Shown here: in pieces, positions 44,793-48,679 of the stretch
How positions within the stretch are numbered: position 1 is the stretch's first letter
Layout: each line of letters begins with the position of its first letter
NCBI GenBank assembly: GCA_041191405.1
Contig: JBEEOW010000007.1
Span: 33,484 to 97,483, forward strand
Origin: Bacteroidota bacterium
GTDB taxonomy: Bacteria; Bacteroidota; Bacteroidia; Cytophagales; UBA9547
Direction of reading: 5' to 3'
Length of the DNA: 64,000 nucleotides
Position numbers and translations under genes: made by a program
Notes under the pieces: generated by a model
Seen by the model: the letters and a program-made list of their open reading frames with translations, nothing else
What the model was told of the DNA's origin: nothing
The model's database searches: none

Positions 44793-45734
44793 TTATTCTT
44801 GCGAAGCAAGGTATCTTTCAGCATCTAAAGCTGCCATACAGCCAGTTCCTGCGGCAGTAATTGCTTGTCTGTAAACGTGGTCTTGAACATCTCCACAAGC
44901 AAAAACGCCTTCTACATTTGTTTTTGAACTATCAGGTTTAGTGATGATATAACCACTTTCGTCCATATCAATTACACCTTTAAATATATCAGAATTTGGT
45001 TTGTGACCAATAGCTACAAAGAAACCAGTTACCGCTTTTTGAGTTATTTCACCTGTTCGAACATTTTTTACAGTAAATCCGTCAACACCATCTTTACCTA
45101 AAATTTCTTGTGTTTCTGATTCCCATAAAATTTCAATTTTAGGATTGTTCATTACACGTTTTTGCATAATTACCGAAGCTCTCATTTGACCTTCTGGCTT
45201 ACGCACAATCATATACACTTTATTACAAAGATTTGCTAAATAAGTAGCTTCTTCACAAGCTGTATCACCAGCTCCAACAATGGCAACATCTTGATTTCTA
45301 TAGAAAAAACCGTCGCAAACAGCACAAGCCGAAACGCCCATACCATTCAAACGTGTTTCTGATTCTAAACCTAACCATTTTGCAGATGCACCTGTCGAAA
45401 TAATTACAGTATCAGCCTCAATAACTGTGGTTTCGTCAATAGTAACTTTTTTGTTTTTAGGGTCTGAAAAATCCACTGAAGTTGCTATACCTATGCGAAT
45501 ATCAGCACCAAAACGTTTAGCTTGCTCTTCAAATTGAACCATCATTTCTGGACCAGTAACTCCTTCTGGGTAGCCAGGGAAATTCTCTACATCATTAGTC
45601 ATAGTAAGCTGACCACCAGGTTGTGGACCTGTATATAAAACTGGTTTTAAACCAGCTCTTGATGCATAAATTGCCGCTGTATATCCCGCAGGACCTGATC
45701 CAATAATTAAACAATGTACTTTTTCTGCTGACAT
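44793..45734 (-). CDS. trxB: thioredoxin-disulfide reductase
   Basis: It has the FAD motif GSGPAGYTAA, the redox centre CAVCDG and the NADPH motif GAGDTA. Confidence 0.9.
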   Translation of the reverse strand: MSAEKVHCLIIGSGPAGYTAAIYASRAGLKPVLYTGPQPGGQLTMTNDVENFPGYPEGVTGPEMMVQFEEQAKRFGADIRIGIATSVDFSDPKNKKVTIDETTVIEADTVIISTGASAKWLGLESETRLNGMGVSACAVCDGFFYRNQDVAIVGAGDTACEEATYLANLCNKVYMIVRKPEGQMRASVIMQKRVMNNPKIEILWESETQEILGKDGVDGFTVKNVRTGEITQKAVTGFFVAIGHKPNSDIFKGVIDMDESGYIITKPDSSKTNVEGVFACGDVQDHVYRQAITAAGTGCMAALDAERYLASQE

Positions 45735-45931
45735 AATATTTCTAGTTTATCTATTCTCAAAATTGATATTACAAAAATGGTTAATCAATGCCTTAAACAC
45801 AAATTATATGGCATTGATTATTTTTATTTCAAGATAAAAATTATTGATAGTTTTCTTCAAGACTTAGGATGAATGACATAAGACTTTGTAATAAAATATT
45901 ATTAATTGAGATGTAGATGAGCGGTGGGCAA

Positions 45932-46058
45932 AAAATCCTTGGATATGGCATCATGATTGTAAATCAGGACGAGCACGATAATCATACTACAAAAAGGTTC
46001 GGAGAACCTAATTTATCTACTGTTCGAGATGCGCTTCGCTAACATCTCGAACAGCAAG
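45932..46058 (+). repeat. R1 repeat copy a (~127 bp) ending in a 12-bp-stem hairpin plus T-run
   Basis: It is about 90% identical to 46853-46979. The hairpin ctgttcgagatg-cgcttcgctaa-catctcgaacag at 46020-46054 is followed by agattttatt. Confidence 0.65.
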
Positions 46059-46065
46059 ATTTTAT

Positions 46066-46169
46066 TAGTTTTTGTTCTTAATTTTTAAGGGAAGGTGTCG
46101 ATGAGCGGTCGTTTATCTAGTTTTTGTTGTTAATTTTTAAGAGAAGATGTGGAAGAGCGGACAATATCT
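46066..46169. repeat. 52-bp tandem duplication (2 units)
   Basis: The units are tagtttttgttcttaatttttaagggaaggtgtcgatgagcggtcg and tagtttttgttgttaatttttaagagaagatgtggaagagcggaca. A related gatgtagatgagcggtgggc sits at 45903. Confidence 0.55.
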
Positions 46170-46594
46170 TAAATTTTAACACCTATAGTAATTAGATGGA
46201 GTATATTATTTAATTTTTTTACATTATTAACTTTTAATATGTGATATTCAGATTGGGTCATTTGCCAACTCTGAATTTTGGAAATTTCTTTAATTAAGAA
46301 ATCTGACCATAAGCTACTTTTTGAAAAATAAAAAAATAACTTTTCAGGTTCATTTAAAATATCATATTCATCTTTAGGGAAAGGTTCTTCCCAATTGTCA
46401 AAATAATCTGGCACATCCCTAATTATTTCAATATAATTTTCAAAAATAGATTTGCTCAAAGTTTTTAATTGCTCGTTATCAATTGATATTATTATCTGAA
46501 TTTTTACCTTAGAATTAACTCTTTCATTGTCTGACCAAGTAAATTCGTCATAACTCAATTTATTAAACCCTAATGATAAATTTTCTATTCTCAT
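46169..46594 (-). CDS. hypothetical small acidic cytoplasmic protein (141 aa)
   Basis: Intact ORF flanked by repeat elements. It has no motif. Confidence 0.4.
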   Translation of the reverse strand: MRIENLSLGFNKLSYDEFTWSDNERVNSKVKIQIIISIDNEQLKTLSKSIFENYIEIIRDVPDYFDNWEEPFPKDEYDILNEPEKLFFYFSKSSLWSDFLIKEISKIQSWQMTQSEYHILKVNNVKKLNNILHLITIGVKI

Positions 46595-46705
46595 TATGTA
46601 TTTCGCACTTATTAATGTTATGCACTGTAGCTACCCTTGTTATTCTTATGACCAACAAGCCACTATATTTTATATCTTACTCCAATCTGAGTAATGACAT
46701 AAAAT

Positions 46706-46818
46706 TTCCGCTACTCGACTTCTTCCCTAACCACTTACACAACTGCAAGATAGTGTGGCTATTCGATATTTGCAATGTCGAATCAGTATCAGTGGATTTG
46801 CAATCCACATAAACAGTT
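46706..46818. repeat. R2 repeat copy a (~110 bp)
   Basis: It matches 47811-47916, apart from a 12-bp indel and a few substitutions. Confidence 0.6.
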
Positions 46819-46852
46819 GTTAAAAAAACATTTTGCTAACTATTTAGGATTG

Positions 46853-46979
46853 AAAATCCTTAGATATAGCATCCAGATTGCAAATCATTACGAGCACGAT
46901 AATCATACTACAAAAAGGTTCAGAGAACCTAATTTATCTACAGTTCGAGATGCGCTTCGCTAACATCTCGAACAGCAAG
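46853..46979 (+). repeat. R1 repeat copy b, hairpin plus ttttttt
   Basis: It is a direct repeat of 45932-46058. Its terminator-like hairpin lies at 46942-46975 and is followed by a T7 run. Confidence 0.65.
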
Positions 46980-47089
46980 TTTTTTTGAATCTATTATATT
47001 CAGTCGTTGCACTTACTACAGCTAAACCTGCTTGTACAAAGGAACTTGCCCTGCAAAGTTCACTGTTATTTTCTTTCCCATTAAAGTAT

Positions 47090-47602
47090 TCAGCGGTCTT
47101 GCCCCCTAATTTTATTGAAATTCAATACTAAATAAAGAGGAACTTTTCTTTTTATAAATTCATTCCCTCGTCTTATTCTGATTACCCCATCGCCTAAATA
47201 CATTACATTCAAACTTAGGTTAAAACATTTATATTGTCCTTCTTTAGTGCTCAATATAGATGTCTCGTATTTTTCCAAAACCGAATGAAGAGAATCATTT
47301 ATACCAATACTAAAGTATTTTATTGATTTACTATTTTGTTCATTAATACATTGTTTGGGCACTTCTAATCCATATTCAAAGGCATAAAAACCTTCCTTAT
47401 AAGCAATACTATCATTTTGTATAACAAATAAAGAAGCCCTTCTATATATCATATCATCTTCAGACCATAAATCATTTGACCATTCAAAAGCAAAATCCCC
47501 TTCTATATGTTTTACATCACATATCTTCAAGTCTTGACCATAGGTTTTTAAGCTAATAAAAACAAACAGTATATATATATACTTGCTACTTAATTTTAAC
47601 AT
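47090..47602 (-). CDS. secreted hypothetical protein (170 aa, signal peptide)
   Basis: It has a signal peptide ending TYGQ. Its ATG overlaps the last five codons of the metalloprotease remnant. Confidence 0.45.
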   Translation of the reverse strand: MLKLSSKYIYILFVFISLKTYGQDLKICDVKHIEGDFAFEWSNDLWSEDDMIYRRASLFVIQNDSIAYKEGFYAFEYGLEVPKQCINEQNSKSIKYFSIGINDSLHSVLEKYETSILSTKEGQYKCFNLSLNVMYLGDGVIRIRRGNEFIKRKVPLYLVLNFNKIRGQDR

Positions 47603-47849
47603 TTTTTAAGTTTGTATTAATTATATCAATATTATTCTTCTTTGTAGGTCTAATTATACCCTGTTTATTGCTCATCATCCCGTCTTGGCTATAATCGTCT
47701 TTTGCATGATTAAGACCAAAGTTATGTCCCATCTCATGTGCAACTAAGTCTTTCTCATCAGCTCCATGCTCGGCTACATTTATATCTATAGGGTTCTTTC
47801 CAAAAACTTCATCATTTCCGCTCCTCGAGTTCTTCCCTAACCACTTACA
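47586..47849 (-). pseudogene. start-less C-terminal remnant of an HExxHxxGxxH zinc metalloprotease (metzincin-like)
   Basis: The translation is CKWLGKNSRSGNDEVFGKNPIDINVAEHGADEKDLVAHEMGHNFGLNHAKDDYSQDG...NVKIK*. There is no start codon upstream of the HExxH motif, and the reading frame opens inside repeat R2b. Confidence 0.55.
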
Positions 47850-47916
47850 CTACTGCAAGATAGTGTAGCTATTCGATATTTACAATGTCGAATATTTGCA
47901 ATCCACATAAACAGTT
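47811..47916. repeat. R2 repeat copy b
   Basis: It is a direct repeat of 46706-46818. On the minus strand its end encodes CKWLGK(N/K)S(R/S)SGN in frame with the metalloprotease remnant. Confidence 0.6.
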
Positions 47917-47995
47917 TTTAATTAAACCATTTATTTATTCATTTAAACATTCAAAAAATCAATTAATACATTAATTTTAATGAAAATTTTAACTT

Positions 47996-48679
47996 ATGAA
48001 AAATTTAGTAGTTCTAACAGGTGCAGGTATAAGTGCCGAAAGTGGCATAAAAACTTTTAGAGATTCTGACGGATTATGGGAAGGACACGATGTAATGGAA
48101 GTGGCTACTCCTCAAGGTTTTGCGAAGAACCCTGCGTTGGTTTTAGAGTTTTATAACCAACGTAGAAAACAAGCTCTTGAAGTAAAACCAAATGGTGGTC
48201 ACATAGGTTTGAAAGACTTAGAAAAACATTTTAATGTATCAATCATTACCCAAAATGTAGATTCATTACACGAACATGCAGGTTCAAAAAATGTACTTCA
48301 TTTACATGGAAAATTAGACGAAAGTAGAAGTACTAAAAACCCTGATTTAGTGTATAAATTAAATTCTTGGGAGCTTAACTTAGGAGATAAATGTGAATTA
48401 GGTTCTCAACTTCGCCCAAATATAGTATGGTTTGGTGAGGCGGTTCCAGCCATTGAGGGTGCAATAGAAATTGTAGCCAAAGCTGATATTTTCGTCATAA
48501 TTGGTACATCATTAGTTGTTTACCCAGCCGCAAGTTTGATTGATTATGTTCCTAAAAAAGTGCCAGTTTATGTAATTGACCCAAATAAACCCTCACTTAC
48601 AAATATCAAACACAATATAACTTTTATTGAAGAAATGGCTAGTGTTGGGGTGGAAAAATTAAAGGGTTTGATAATATAA
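47996..48679 (+). CDS. NAD-dependent protein deacylase, Sir2 family (CobB-like)
   Basis: It has the Sir2 motifs GAGISAESGIKTFRD, QNVDSLH and an HG in LHLHGKL. The Zn-ribbon region has only one conserved Cys, which matches the short bacterial CobB forms. It is 227 aa. Confidence 0.85.
   Translation: MKNLVVLTGAGISAESGIKTFRDSDGLWEGHDVMEVATPQGFAKNPALVLEFYNQRRKQALEVKPNGGHIGLKDLEKHFNVSIITQNVDSLHEHAGSKNVLHLHGKLDESRSTKNPDLVYKLNSWELNLGDKCELGSQLRPNIVWFGEAVPAIEGAIEIVAKADIFVIIGTSLVVYPAASLIDYVPKKVPVYVIDPNKPSLTNIKHNITFIEEMASVGVEKLKGLII

Follow-up and report, generated by a model that had tools for sequence, protein, structure and literature searches.

The R1 element, which occurs twice in the 64-kb stretch of Bacteroidota DNA analysed here (the window), is very likely a locally duplicated piece of a REP cluster whose 75-nt core is the DNA partner of a Bacteroidota RAYT (TnpA_REP) of subclass 2.6. 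REPs, or repetitive extragenic palindromes, are short repeated DNA sequences that form hairpins, and the core belongs to this already described and fairly ordinary kind of bacterial DNA hairpin repeat; R1 is most unlikely to be a small RNA gene, as a sequence-only reading of the locus had proposed.

Two copies of R1 lie between trxB and a SIR2 gene

R1a and R1b are direct repeats with a spacing of 921. The suggestion of a duplicated unit of ~130 nt with high (~90%) conservation proved accurate: the element measures 132 nt and is present in two copies in the window. Each of two R1-derived 31-mers has exactly two occurrences in the 64-kb window and 0 in 100 shuffles. The features of the locus are as follows.

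44793-45734, minus strand: trxB
45932-46063, plus strand: R1a, 132-nt copy (hairpin B3, 26-nt spacer, hairpin B4, TTTATC, hairpin A, AGCAAG)
45952-45968: hairpin B3 of R1a, CATGATTGTAAATCAGG, of the canonical GATTnnAAATC type, imperfect
45984-46058, plus strand: REP module 1 (covariance model 80.2 bits, E 2.4e-16), the part common to other Bacteroidota
45995-46009: hairpin B4 of R1a, AGGTTC GGA GAACCT
46020-46054: hairpin A of R1a, perfect 12-bp stem (46020-46031 with 46043-46054), 11-nt loop
46066-46160, plus strand: D3, two tandem 52-nt units, each with the lineage-specific motif CCGCTNNTCNACNNCTTCCC on the minus strand
46169-46594, minus strand: ORF141, conserved hypothetical accessory gene between R1a and R1b
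46755-46818, minus strand: inverted REP module in D2/D4 (covariance model 25 bits, E 0.003), inverted repeat I1
46761-46783: short-loop hairpin A', with AGC after the stem
46792-46808: hairpin B1 of the inverted module, GTGGATTTGCAATCCAC
46846-46860: hairpin B2, AGGATTGAAAATCCT
46853-46984, plus strand: R1b, second R1 copy, 92% identical to R1a
46873-46889: hairpin B3 of R1b, CCAGATTGCAAATCATT, decayed to 4 bp
46905-46979, plus strand: REP module 2 (covariance model 81.0 bits, E 1.6e-16)
46916-46930: hairpin B4 of R1b, loop AGA
46941-46975: hairpin A of R1b, 10 perfect bp (46943-46973), an A/A mismatch and one C-G pair
47090-47602, minus strand: ORF170, small protein with a signal-peptide-like N-terminus
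47814-47932, plus strand: D2'/D4', second D2/D4 copy, which keeps short-loop hairpin A'
47996-48679, plus strand: SIR2 gene

Both R1 copies are located between ORFs, each 106 nt downstream of a minus-strand stop codon, that of ORF170 for R1b. The neighbouring genes had been described as all lying on the minus strand, which holds for trxB, ORF141 and ORF170 but not for the SIR2 gene; neither ORF141 nor ORF170 was assigned to a Pfam family. The flanks of the two copies are not simply unrelated either. R1b adjoins the repeat D2/D4 (46704-46834), which carries the inverted REP module and recurs at 47814-47932, where a 12-nt deletion removed half of hairpin B1, and the tandem 52-nt unit of D3 sits at 46066-46160; a 20-nt motif has four occurrences, found only at the R1 locus. 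In all 64 kb of the window, modules occur at one locus: two are strong, a third is inverted and weaker, and a short-loop hairpin there is truncated.

The homology between the two copies starts inside the right arm of hairpin B2, and R1a is without the left arm: R1a corresponds to the right half of a REP doublet, a half copy. The left 52 nt of R1 are lineage-specific and absent from published REPs, and an exact 24-mer from this part gave 0 matches among metagenome contigs. No tRNA or tmRNA turned up in a scan that asked whether R1 is a tRNA fragment that an integrating element had duplicated.

The core of R1 is a two-hairpin DNA module

The last ~75 nt of each copy form a module composed of hairpin B, TTTATC, 4 nt, hairpin A and AGC. 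Hairpin A consists of GTTCGAGATG, an 11-nt loop and CATCTCGAAC, followed by AGC. The perfect or near-perfect 12-bp stem noticed earlier is perfect in R1a and, in R1b, amounts to 10 bp plus an A/A mismatch and a C-G pair; the inner ggttc/gaacc hairpin reported for each copy is likewise present, as AGGTTC-GGA/AGA-GAACCT at 45995-46009 and 46916-46930. The loop of hairpin A is itself structured (TTAGC-NNN-GCG, with a 2-bp mini-stem) and is inverted in the strain variants L003/L008 and in L037, and the imperfect hairpin B3 is a perfect 7-bp stem in L003. Folded as DNA, the module is equally stable on its two strands (-17.9 and -18.1 kcal/mol). Within R1a, gene callers annotate a spurious 41-aa ORF; hairpin A is a site at which short-read assemblies break.

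The module recurs across Bacteroidota with covarying stems

BLAST matches of R1a in other genomes are confined to module 1 (45984-46058). A genome scan with the stem pattern returned 30 loci, 26 of them of the Bacteroidota type (Chitinophagales, Sphingobacteriales, Cytophagales), against ~0.5 expected by chance. Thirty-three aligned modules share a common layout of B, TTTATC, A and AGC, and five of the six hairpin B pairs have changed on both sides. In a larger set of 140 modules from RAYT loci, 95.7% of cells are paired and 14 of 16 pairs show two-sided change. Both partners changed in 291 cells and a single one in only 9; none of 500 shuffles reached the observed values, and slid controls paired 24-49%. 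Both stems thus covary, which answers the covariation analysis that had been called for, and they do so as strand-symmetric DNA palindromes in which G-U pairs are almost absent.

Long ORFs contain 70% of bases but only 11 of 206 modules. Because different genes end next to R1 in different strains, the R1 core is non-coding, in agreement with the earlier view. The alternative offered there, a small mobile element and not decayed coding sequence, came near the truth, the core being a RAYT-linked REP element.

The reading of R1 as a MITE, a non-autonomous transposon with terminal inverted repeats, or as a chance local duplication of non-functional spacer, is nonetheless very unlikely. R1a does begin with AAAATCCTTG and end with CAAGATTTT, a 9/10 imperfect inverted repeat (the outer helix), and there are only two copies, close together. 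Yet the terminal pairing is weak in R1b, no target-site duplication is present and the R1 boundary falls inside hairpin B2; moreover, the core is no arbitrary spacer DNA, being conserved from one bacterial order to another and linked to RAYTs. The miniature-transposon reading was rejected on the missing target-site duplication, the weak terminal repeats and the presence of two copies.

Modules flank RAYT genes in inverted orientation

The association of the core with RAYT genes was observed in genomes other than the host. At two loci (L028 and L033), inverted modules bracket both sides of a gene for a PF01797 Y1 transposase with NHVH...YIHQNP motifs. As an independent test, we collected 80 metagenome loci by RAYT protein similarity alone. 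The covariance model detected 140 modules in 54 of the 80, in inverted orientation around the RAYT gene (Y1/HUH, PF01797). A minus-strand module lies at most 200 nt upstream of the RAYT gene in 40 of 73 cases and a plus-strand module at most 200 nt downstream in 39 of 72. Orientation is biased 53:11 on the upstream side and 64:11 on the downstream side, and the order reads A-B-[RAYT]-B-A, the inverted arrangement of a REPtron. AGC, the complement of a TGCT foot, follows the stem in 117 of the 140 RAYT-flanking modules. A B hairpin identical to B4 of R1a adjoins a RAYT gene in L076, and the short-loop hairpin A' variant flanks RAYT genes in L060, L066 and L069. Databases name the protein family "REP-associated tyrosine transposase" or RayT.

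By the REP convention, the sense strand is the minus strand of the window, which reads 5'-TGCT foot, hairpin A, GATAAA, hairpin B. At 46056-46022 and 46977-46943 the minus strand carries TGCT-GTTCGAGATG-TTAGCGAAGCG-CATCTCGAAC, and the first of these, hairpin A with its TGCT foot (46056 down to 46022), is identical at 32 of 35 positions to a published P. saltans REP. The REPs of the P. saltans RAYT ADY50986.1 are TGCTGTTTGAGATGTTAGCATAGCGCATCTCGAAC and TGCTGTTCGACATGTTCCGCAGGGCATGTCGAAC, and other subclass-2.6 RAYTs have GGATTGCAAATCC-type hairpins, B hairpins of this type being given for F. johnsoniae and Runella (Quentin et al. 2018, PMC6006769, Table S1). R1 shares with the P. saltans REPs the hairpin A stem, the kind of loop and the TGCT foot, and with subclass-2.6 REPs generally the extragenic location and the inverted copies around RAYT genes. 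It differs from them in its extra 52 lineage-specific nt, in its very few copies in the window and in the lack of a RAYT there; moreover, the published table (PMC6006769, Table S1) lists hairpin types separately, whereas A and B are here joined in one fixed module. A GTAG-foot class of REP, suggested by AGTAG after the minus-strand stem in R1a, was considered and rejected: GTAG lacks conservation in the family, and it is TGCT/AGC, on the other side, that is conserved.

No RAYT gene was found in the 64-kb window by a motif scan, and tblastn with seven RAYTs gave nothing significant there. Among the best 120 of at least 7,710 members of the RAYT family, none bears the source name of the host MAG.

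By analogy with E. coli TnpA_REP, the hairpins would act as single-stranded DNA, recognised by the RAYT through foot and stem and then cut and rejoined, which would explain the spread of such modules. The subterminal hairpins of IS200/IS605 elements are also DNA hairpins recognised in single-stranded form by a PF01797 Y1 HUH enzyme; unlike in those elements, the enzyme of the RAYT clade is single-copy and flanked by inverted hairpin arrays, and the hairpins are also dispersed without the gene.

R1b is part of a REPIN-like doublet

R1b and the inverted short-loop REP (46755-46818) together form a REPIN-like doublet spanning 46755-46979. Its A hairpins, of different subtypes, are ~157 nt apart, and its arms are 74% complementary over 39 nt. 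Like Pseudomonas REPINs and E. coli BIMEs, the doublet comprises two inverted REPs with their feet outside, and those elements, too, are multi-hairpin clusters in intergenic DNA downstream of genes and are tied to a single-copy RAYT, as R1-type modules are in other genomes. The foot is GT[AG]G in REPINs and BIMEs but TGCT in R1-type modules. Further differences from REPINs and BIMEs are the spacer of ~157 nt between the A hairpins, which contains four extra small hairpins, the limited complementarity of the arms (only ~74% over 39 nt) and the combination of one long-loop with one short-loop A hairpin.

R1 is very unlikely to be a small RNA gene with its own terminator

R1 had been read as a plus-strand sRNA-like unit with an intrinsic terminator, that is, as a duplicated sRNA gene of ~130 nt ending in a Rho-independent terminator made of hairpin A and a T-run. 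We consider this extremely unlikely. In both copies a T-rich stretch does lie 4-5 nt 3' of a strong hairpin, the plus-strand RNA folds better than shuffles (z -3.3 and -2.4), and a sigma-70-like match is located ~30 nt upstream of R1a, though of R1a only. As RNA, however, the minus strand folds better still (z -5.7), G-U pairs hardly occur, the two strands are equally stable as DNA, and the flipped loop of L003/L008 and L037 would turn the RNA loop into its own complement. Upstream of R1a and R1b the sequences show no relationship to each other, neither copy has the Bacteroidota -7 motif, and the left boundary of R1 is a truncated hairpin rather than a promoter.

The proposed terminator fares no better. 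The T-run does not directly follow the stem, as had been stated, but begins 4-5 nt further on, after CAAG (from 46059 and 46980). In a terminator scan, hairpin A went uncalled on the plus strand; the sole calls, on both strands, were for the small inner hairpin, which is followed by TTTTTG on the minus strand. Across the family, a T-run follows hairpin A in 34 of 206 members (16.5%), compared with 19.7% at random positions. What R1 has in common with Rho-independent terminators and terminator-ended sRNAs is a hairpin that is stable and contains G+C, with T-rich sequence near it on both strands; it differs from them in the offset of the T-run by 4-5 nt, in the large and structured loop of hairpin A, and in being strand-symmetric and tied to a transposase.

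Searches for known RNAs and promoters were also negative. The Rfam scan that had been proposed as a check returned no match at the gathering score in the whole window; with E<=10 over 45700-48000, only chance-level matches to eukaryotic snoRNAs and lncRNAs appeared. Scans for sigma-70 and Bacteroidota -7 motifs revealed no consistent plus-strand promoter, and TAnnTTTG was absent from the plus strand in 45735-46446 and 46455-47606, motif scans being weak evidence.

Transcribed from the other strand, the element might have taken on a function in addition to its REP identity. Hairpin A followed by B4 and UUUUUG could, in the mRNAs of ORF141 and ORF170, terminate transcription or stop 3' exonucleases, and could insulate trxB; we regard this as possible but rather unlikely. 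Such an adopted 3'-end function is known for E. coli REPs. The position of both copies, 106 nt 3' of a minus-strand stop codon, speaks for it, as do the terminator-like call for B4 and TTTTTG on the minus strand, the minus-strand RNA folds (z -5.7 and -3.6), the presence of the same element after the stop codon of a different gene in strain L003, and the mild enrichment, 15.5% versus 8.8%, of A-runs on the 5' side of hairpin B, which are T-runs when read from the opposite strand. Against it, the T-run enrichment after hairpin B is weak and the B4 stem has only 6 bp, three of them G-C. The family also occurs in both orientations and in tandem arrays by RAYT genes; therefore a role in termination cannot define it.

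Strain variants point to recombination at direct repeats

The small-gene content of the locus differs among strains. ORF141 is absent from strain variants L009 and L004. Where natural variants have gained or lost ORF141, the endpoints of the insertion or deletion fall at the R1 copies and at further short direct repeats. In L005 R1 is a mosaic, the product that recombination between R1a and R1b would give; with the variants L009, L004, L003/L008 and L010, L005 supports a role for R1 in recombination. An exact look-up of ORF141 found it only at the R1 locus, and the only further contigs recovered with the SIR2 protein were ones that break inside hairpin A.

Such variation invites comparison with gene cassettes. 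We judged it highly improbable, however, that R1 is an integron attC-like site, or an equivalent used by a RAYT, for the capture and excision of small gene cassettes in the interval from trxB to the SIR2 gene. Gene-sized units are indeed bounded by structured repeats, the small gene beside R1 varies by strain (ORF141, ORF170 or, in L003, a different ORF), and in L009 the junction coincides exactly with the right end of R1. The attC sites and the Vibrio cholerae repeats resemble R1 in being ~130 nt long, ~90% identical, structured and 3' of small genes of unknown function, and variation in gene presence and absence is common to them and the R1 locus. Nevertheless, R1 lacks RYYYAAC/GTTRRRY core sites, GTTCGAG having a C at the purine position, and folds into several separate hairpins where attC sites have a single long bulged one. 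A different direct repeat, of 15 nt, is the endpoint of the L004 deletion, the mosaic R1 of L005 fits ordinary homologous exchange, ORF141 was found only at the R1 locus, and the clear partner of the module is a RAYT, not an integrase. The attC reading was accordingly rejected on core-site sequence and fold shape; compared with attC sites, R1 has neither core sites nor an integrase link, is multi-hairpin, and shows variants that recombination between direct repeats explains.

A related proposal keeps the REP identity of R1 and gives it a wider role. The REP doublets of the family could be portable boundaries of exchangeable accessory-gene units, which a RAYT, or replication slippage driven by the hairpins, would swap, insert or delete; the small genes between trxB and the SIR2 gene may each be bracketed by inverted A hairpins with their TGCT feet toward the gene. 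We consider this a long shot. If true, it would make the doublets a REP-based counterpart of integron cassettes and the fixed module of B, TTTATC, A and AGC a functional unit recognised by the enzyme.

Biological meaning of R1

The R1 copies in the host now probably act mainly as passive relics that serve as substrates for recombination, and they may also provide 3'-end hairpins for minus-strand genes. The REP identity of R1 explains both the spurious 41-aa ORF and the assembly breaks in hairpin A. R1 would come as no surprise to a specialist in REPs and RAYTs, nor does it open a long-standing question. It nevertheless offers a worked example in which a poorly studied clade of Bacteroidota RAYTs has a defined two-hairpin DNA partner, a module for which a covariance model now exists, and in this genome the relic R1 copies mark a strain-variable hotspot beside trxB.

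A duplicated hairpin module upstream of trxB

R1 is present as two direct copies of 132 nt that are 92% identical and spaced by 921 nt. The repeat itself is real. Two 31-mers drawn from it are each present at exactly two sites in the 64 kb and in none of 100 shuffled versions.

Features of the locus (window coordinates)
44793-45734, minus: trxB
45932-46063: first R1 copy, R1a
45984-46058: REP (short DNA hairpin repeat) module 1
46066-46160: 52-nt unit duplicated in tandem
46169-46594, minus: ORF141
46704-46834: repeat D2/D4, adjoining R1b
46755-46818, minus: module within D2/D4
46853-46984: second R1 copy, R1b
46905-46979: REP module 2
47090-47602, minus: ORF170
47814-47932: second occurrence of D2/D4 (D2'/D4')
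47996-48679, plus: SIR2 gene

The 3' end of each copy forms hairpin A (R1a: stem CTGTTCGAGATG / CATCTCGAACAG, 12 bp, 11-nt loop; R1b: 10 bp, an A/A mismatch and one further pair), and a small hairpin, B4 (AGGTTC-GGA/AGA-GAACCT), lies inside each. The sequence-only reading had regarded hairpin A and a following T-run as the intrinsic terminator of a plus-strand sRNA-like unit. The strong terminal hairpin stands in both copies; the T-run begins 4-5 nt past the stem, behind CAAG, and a terminator scan left hairpin A uncalled, B4 being its sole call (followed on the minus strand by TTTTTG). That reading also placed all neighbouring genes on the minus strand and held the flanks to be unrelated, which is contradicted by the plus-strand SIR2 gene and by further repeats around R1 (D2/D4, the tandem 52-nt unit and a 20-nt motif present four times). 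A 41-aa ORF annotated by gene callers in several public assemblies at 45917-46042 (+), nearly all within R1a, is most likely spurious.

The module belongs to a published REP family

In BLAST against other genomes, only ~45991-46063 and ~46912-46984 proved to be shared, leaving the left-hand 52 nt of R1 as lineage-specific sequence. An exact scan for GTTCGAGATG-N11-CATCTCGAAC, with one genome per species, recovered 30 loci against ~0.5 expected by chance. Twenty-six are Bacteroidota-type (Flavipsychrobacter and other Chitinophagales, Pedobacter, Olivibacter, Sphingobacterium and Chryseotalea), and the other four look like chance matches within G+C-rich sequence. Oriented copies share a common layout, namely a 5-7-bp hairpin B (usually GGATTnnAAATCC), TTTATC, ~4 nt, hairpin A and AGC, with both-side changes in five of the six pairs of hairpin B. 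The B4 variant of R1, GGTTCnGAGAACC, occupies the equivalent position beside genes for REP-associated tyrosine transposases (RAYTs) at L076, L052, L096 and L069.

TnpA_REP subclass 2.6, mostly from Bacteroidetes, is flanked by 'atypical secondary structures' with further copies elsewhere in the genome (Quentin et al. 2018, PMC6006769). Table S1 of that study lists the REPs TGCTGTTTGAGATGTTAGCATAGCGCATCTCGAAC and TGCTGTTCGACATGTTCCGCAGGGCATGTCGAAC, both with the foot TGCT, for Pedobacter saltans ADY50986.1, and CGGATTGCAAATCCG-type hairpins for F. johnsoniae and Runella. The window's minus strand, which is the sense strand by REP convention, reads TGCT-GTTCGAGATG-TTAGCGAAGCG-CATCTCGAAC and is identical to the first P. 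saltans REP at 32 of 35 positions. Given this identity and the listed B-type hairpins, the published family includes both hairpin A and the B-type hairpins found in R1. The joining of the two hairpin types in one fixed module, unstated in the published table, is a modest addition.

Modules flank RAYT genes

At two loci found through the hairpin, two inverted modules enclose the gene for a 175-aa protein that has NH[VI]H...YIH[QL]NP motifs and matches Pfam Y1_Tnp (order A-B-gene-B-A). To remove ascertainment bias, we picked 80 metagenome loci by similarity to this protein alone and ran on them a covariance model built on 33 modules. The model detected modules at 54 of these 80 loci, 140 in all; those without a module were mostly the ones whose proteins diverge most. 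Among loci with sufficient flank, a minus-strand module lay within 200 nt upstream of the RAYT gene in 40 of 73, and a plus-strand module within 200 nt downstream in 39 of 72 (orientation bias 53:11 and 64:11, respectively). The protein family comprises at least 7,710 clusters, named, where sources give a name, 'REP-associated tyrosine transposase' or 'REP element-mobilizing transposase RayT'.

Many RAYT genes also adjoin head-to-tail arrays of 4-6 modules with periods of ~84-190 nt (L064 1458-1905 and 2523-3011; L077 1694-1884 and 2559-2997; L058 1625-2118; L033 967-1297; L034 7538-7997), made of identical units without unique spacers in between.

Evidence favours a DNA palindrome over an sRNA

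In the 140 RAYT-flanking modules, 95.7% of cells were paired and 14 of 16 pairs showed both-side changes; the alignment was fitted to the model, which biases it towards pairing, and the margin over slid controls (24-49% paired) and shuffles is still wide. The stems covary, with 291 cells changed on both sides and 9 on one side, so that G-U intermediates are nearly absent, contrary to a plus-strand sRNA. Either strand of the module folds with equal stability as single-stranded DNA (-17.9 and -18.1 kcal/mol, z ~ -6). Moreover, the strain variants L003/L008 (~240-272, corresponding to window 46022-46052), and also L037 (2364-2394), carry the 11-nt loop of hairpin A in the opposite orientation (CGCTTCGCTAA instead of TTAGCGAAGCG) between an unchanged stem and flanks. 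This flip-flop between stem arms is harmless to a palindrome, while an RNA loop would become its complement, which favours a DNA element. A T-run within 6 nt past hairpin A accompanies 34 of 206 modules, against 19.7% of random positions, and the modules are extragenic (11 of 206 within long ORFs, which hold 70% of bases). R1 had no Rfam match (whole window at gathering score; 45700-48000 at E<=10), no tRNA was found, and no Bacteroidota -7 promoter motif precedes either copy on the plus strand.

Covariation, DNA fold, loop flip, T-run rate and extragenic location all favour a strand-symmetric DNA element and lend no support to R1 as a self-terminated plus-strand sRNA. The sequence-only reading was essentially right in its alternative, a 'mobile miniature element': the conserved core of R1 is a REP of an already published, RAYT-linked family, and an sRNA gene is very unlikely.

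An inverted REP doublet between ORF170 and ORF141

The covariance model placed the minus-strand module within D2/D4 at 25 bits, in the order hairpin B1 (GTGGATTTGCAATCCAC), short-loop hairpin A' (ATTCGACAT-TGCAA-ATATCGAAT), AGC; the A' variant also flanks RAYT genes at the low-G+C metagenome loci L060, L066 and L069. Together with the R1b module it makes 46755-46979 an inverted doublet with its feet outside (A', B1, B2, B3, B4, A), REPIN-like in this respect but with a long spacer. R1a represents the right-hand half of a doublet of this kind, because R1 homology starts partway through B2, in its right arm; D2'/D4' represents a left-hand half that has lost 12 nt from B1.

On the minus strand, a stop codon precedes each R1 copy by 106 nt, that of ORF141 for R1a (stretch 46064-46168) and that of ORF170 for R1b (stretch 46985-47089). 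Because these two stretches are unrelated in sequence, the shared distance is probably coincidental. ORF141 is a genuine, sporadically distributed hypothetical protein, 53-62% identical to six other clusters (e.g., Flavobacterium oreochromis). A secondary role of R1 as 3'-end hairpins for the two genes is rather unlikely, though B4 followed by UUUUUG is terminator-like on the minus strand, whose RNA folds with z -5.7.

The Bacteroidota-type -7 motif TAACTTTG occurs at 47717-47724 (-), upstream of ORF170, as the only intergenic minus-strand match in the region; two more lie inside ORF170 and ORF141, and none falls on the minus strand between these genes (46594-47090). ORF141 may therefore be co-transcribed through the doublet, as intercistronic BIMEs are in E. 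coli operons.

A non-hairpin 20-nt motif, CCGCTNNTCNACNNCTTCCC, has four copies (0.12 expected), at 46089-46108 (-), 46141-46160 (-), 46708-46727 (+) and 47818-47837 (+), with a partial copy at 45909-45925. All copies lie within the trxB-SIR2 gap, inverted on either side of ORF141. The motif is absent from 116 loci, that is, all except re-fetches of this locus, and L010, a divergent strain of it, carries a diverged copy.

Repeats at the endpoints of natural insertions and deletions

Contigs with an identical TrxB protein revealed at least five arrangements upstream of trxB.

Arrangements upstream of trxB
L001, L002: window type
L009: without ORF141, D2/D4 and R1b; a single R1, 99.7% R1a-like, joined directly to the R1b flank
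L004: without R1a and ORF141; D2/D4 abuts trxB at the 15-nt direct repeat AATGACATAA
L003/L008: a different ORF ends ~30 nt from the REP; loop flipped
L010, 1-60: another REP subtype, stem CCTTAGAG / CTCTAAGG, loop TTAGCGTAGCG

The segment absent in L004 ends exactly at the 15-nt direct repeat AATGACATAAnAnTT (45872-45886 and 46693-46707). In L010 the whole stem is replaced at an equivalent position with the loop type kept, resembling the second published P. saltans REP (CTGTCCGTAGAG...CTCTACGG). The R1 of L005 is a mosaic that matches R1b at the last two variable sites on the right and R1a at all the others, a pattern expected if the two copies had exchanged sequence.

The natural insertions and deletions at this locus thus have repeats at their endpoints. 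As their cause we tentatively prefer ordinary recombination between direct repeats over enzyme-mediated events. That REP doublets delimit exchangeable accessory-gene units has little support. Short-read (Logan) contigs often end inside or at hairpin A (L005-L007, L122 and L123; equivalents of ~46030 and ~46951); these are assembly breaks caused by the repeat and carry no information on arrangement.

Proposed origin and present role

The TnpA_REP of E. coli binds a folded single-stranded REP along with the 5' foot of that REP, and its cutting and rejoining take place nearby. By analogy, the TGCT foot and hairpin A, probably with hairpin B and TTTATC, would form the recognition unit of a Bacteroidota RAYT, and such recognition would spread the modules. 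No RAYT gene was found in the 64-kb window by motif scan or tblastn of seven RAYTs, and, by source names, none of the best 120 of at least 7,710 family members is tied to the host MAG. The B3 hairpins are decaying (R1a retains 5 bp plus a mismatch and R1b 4 bp, versus 7 bp in L003). Both observations suggest that the host copies are relics, which may now serve mainly as recombination substrates.
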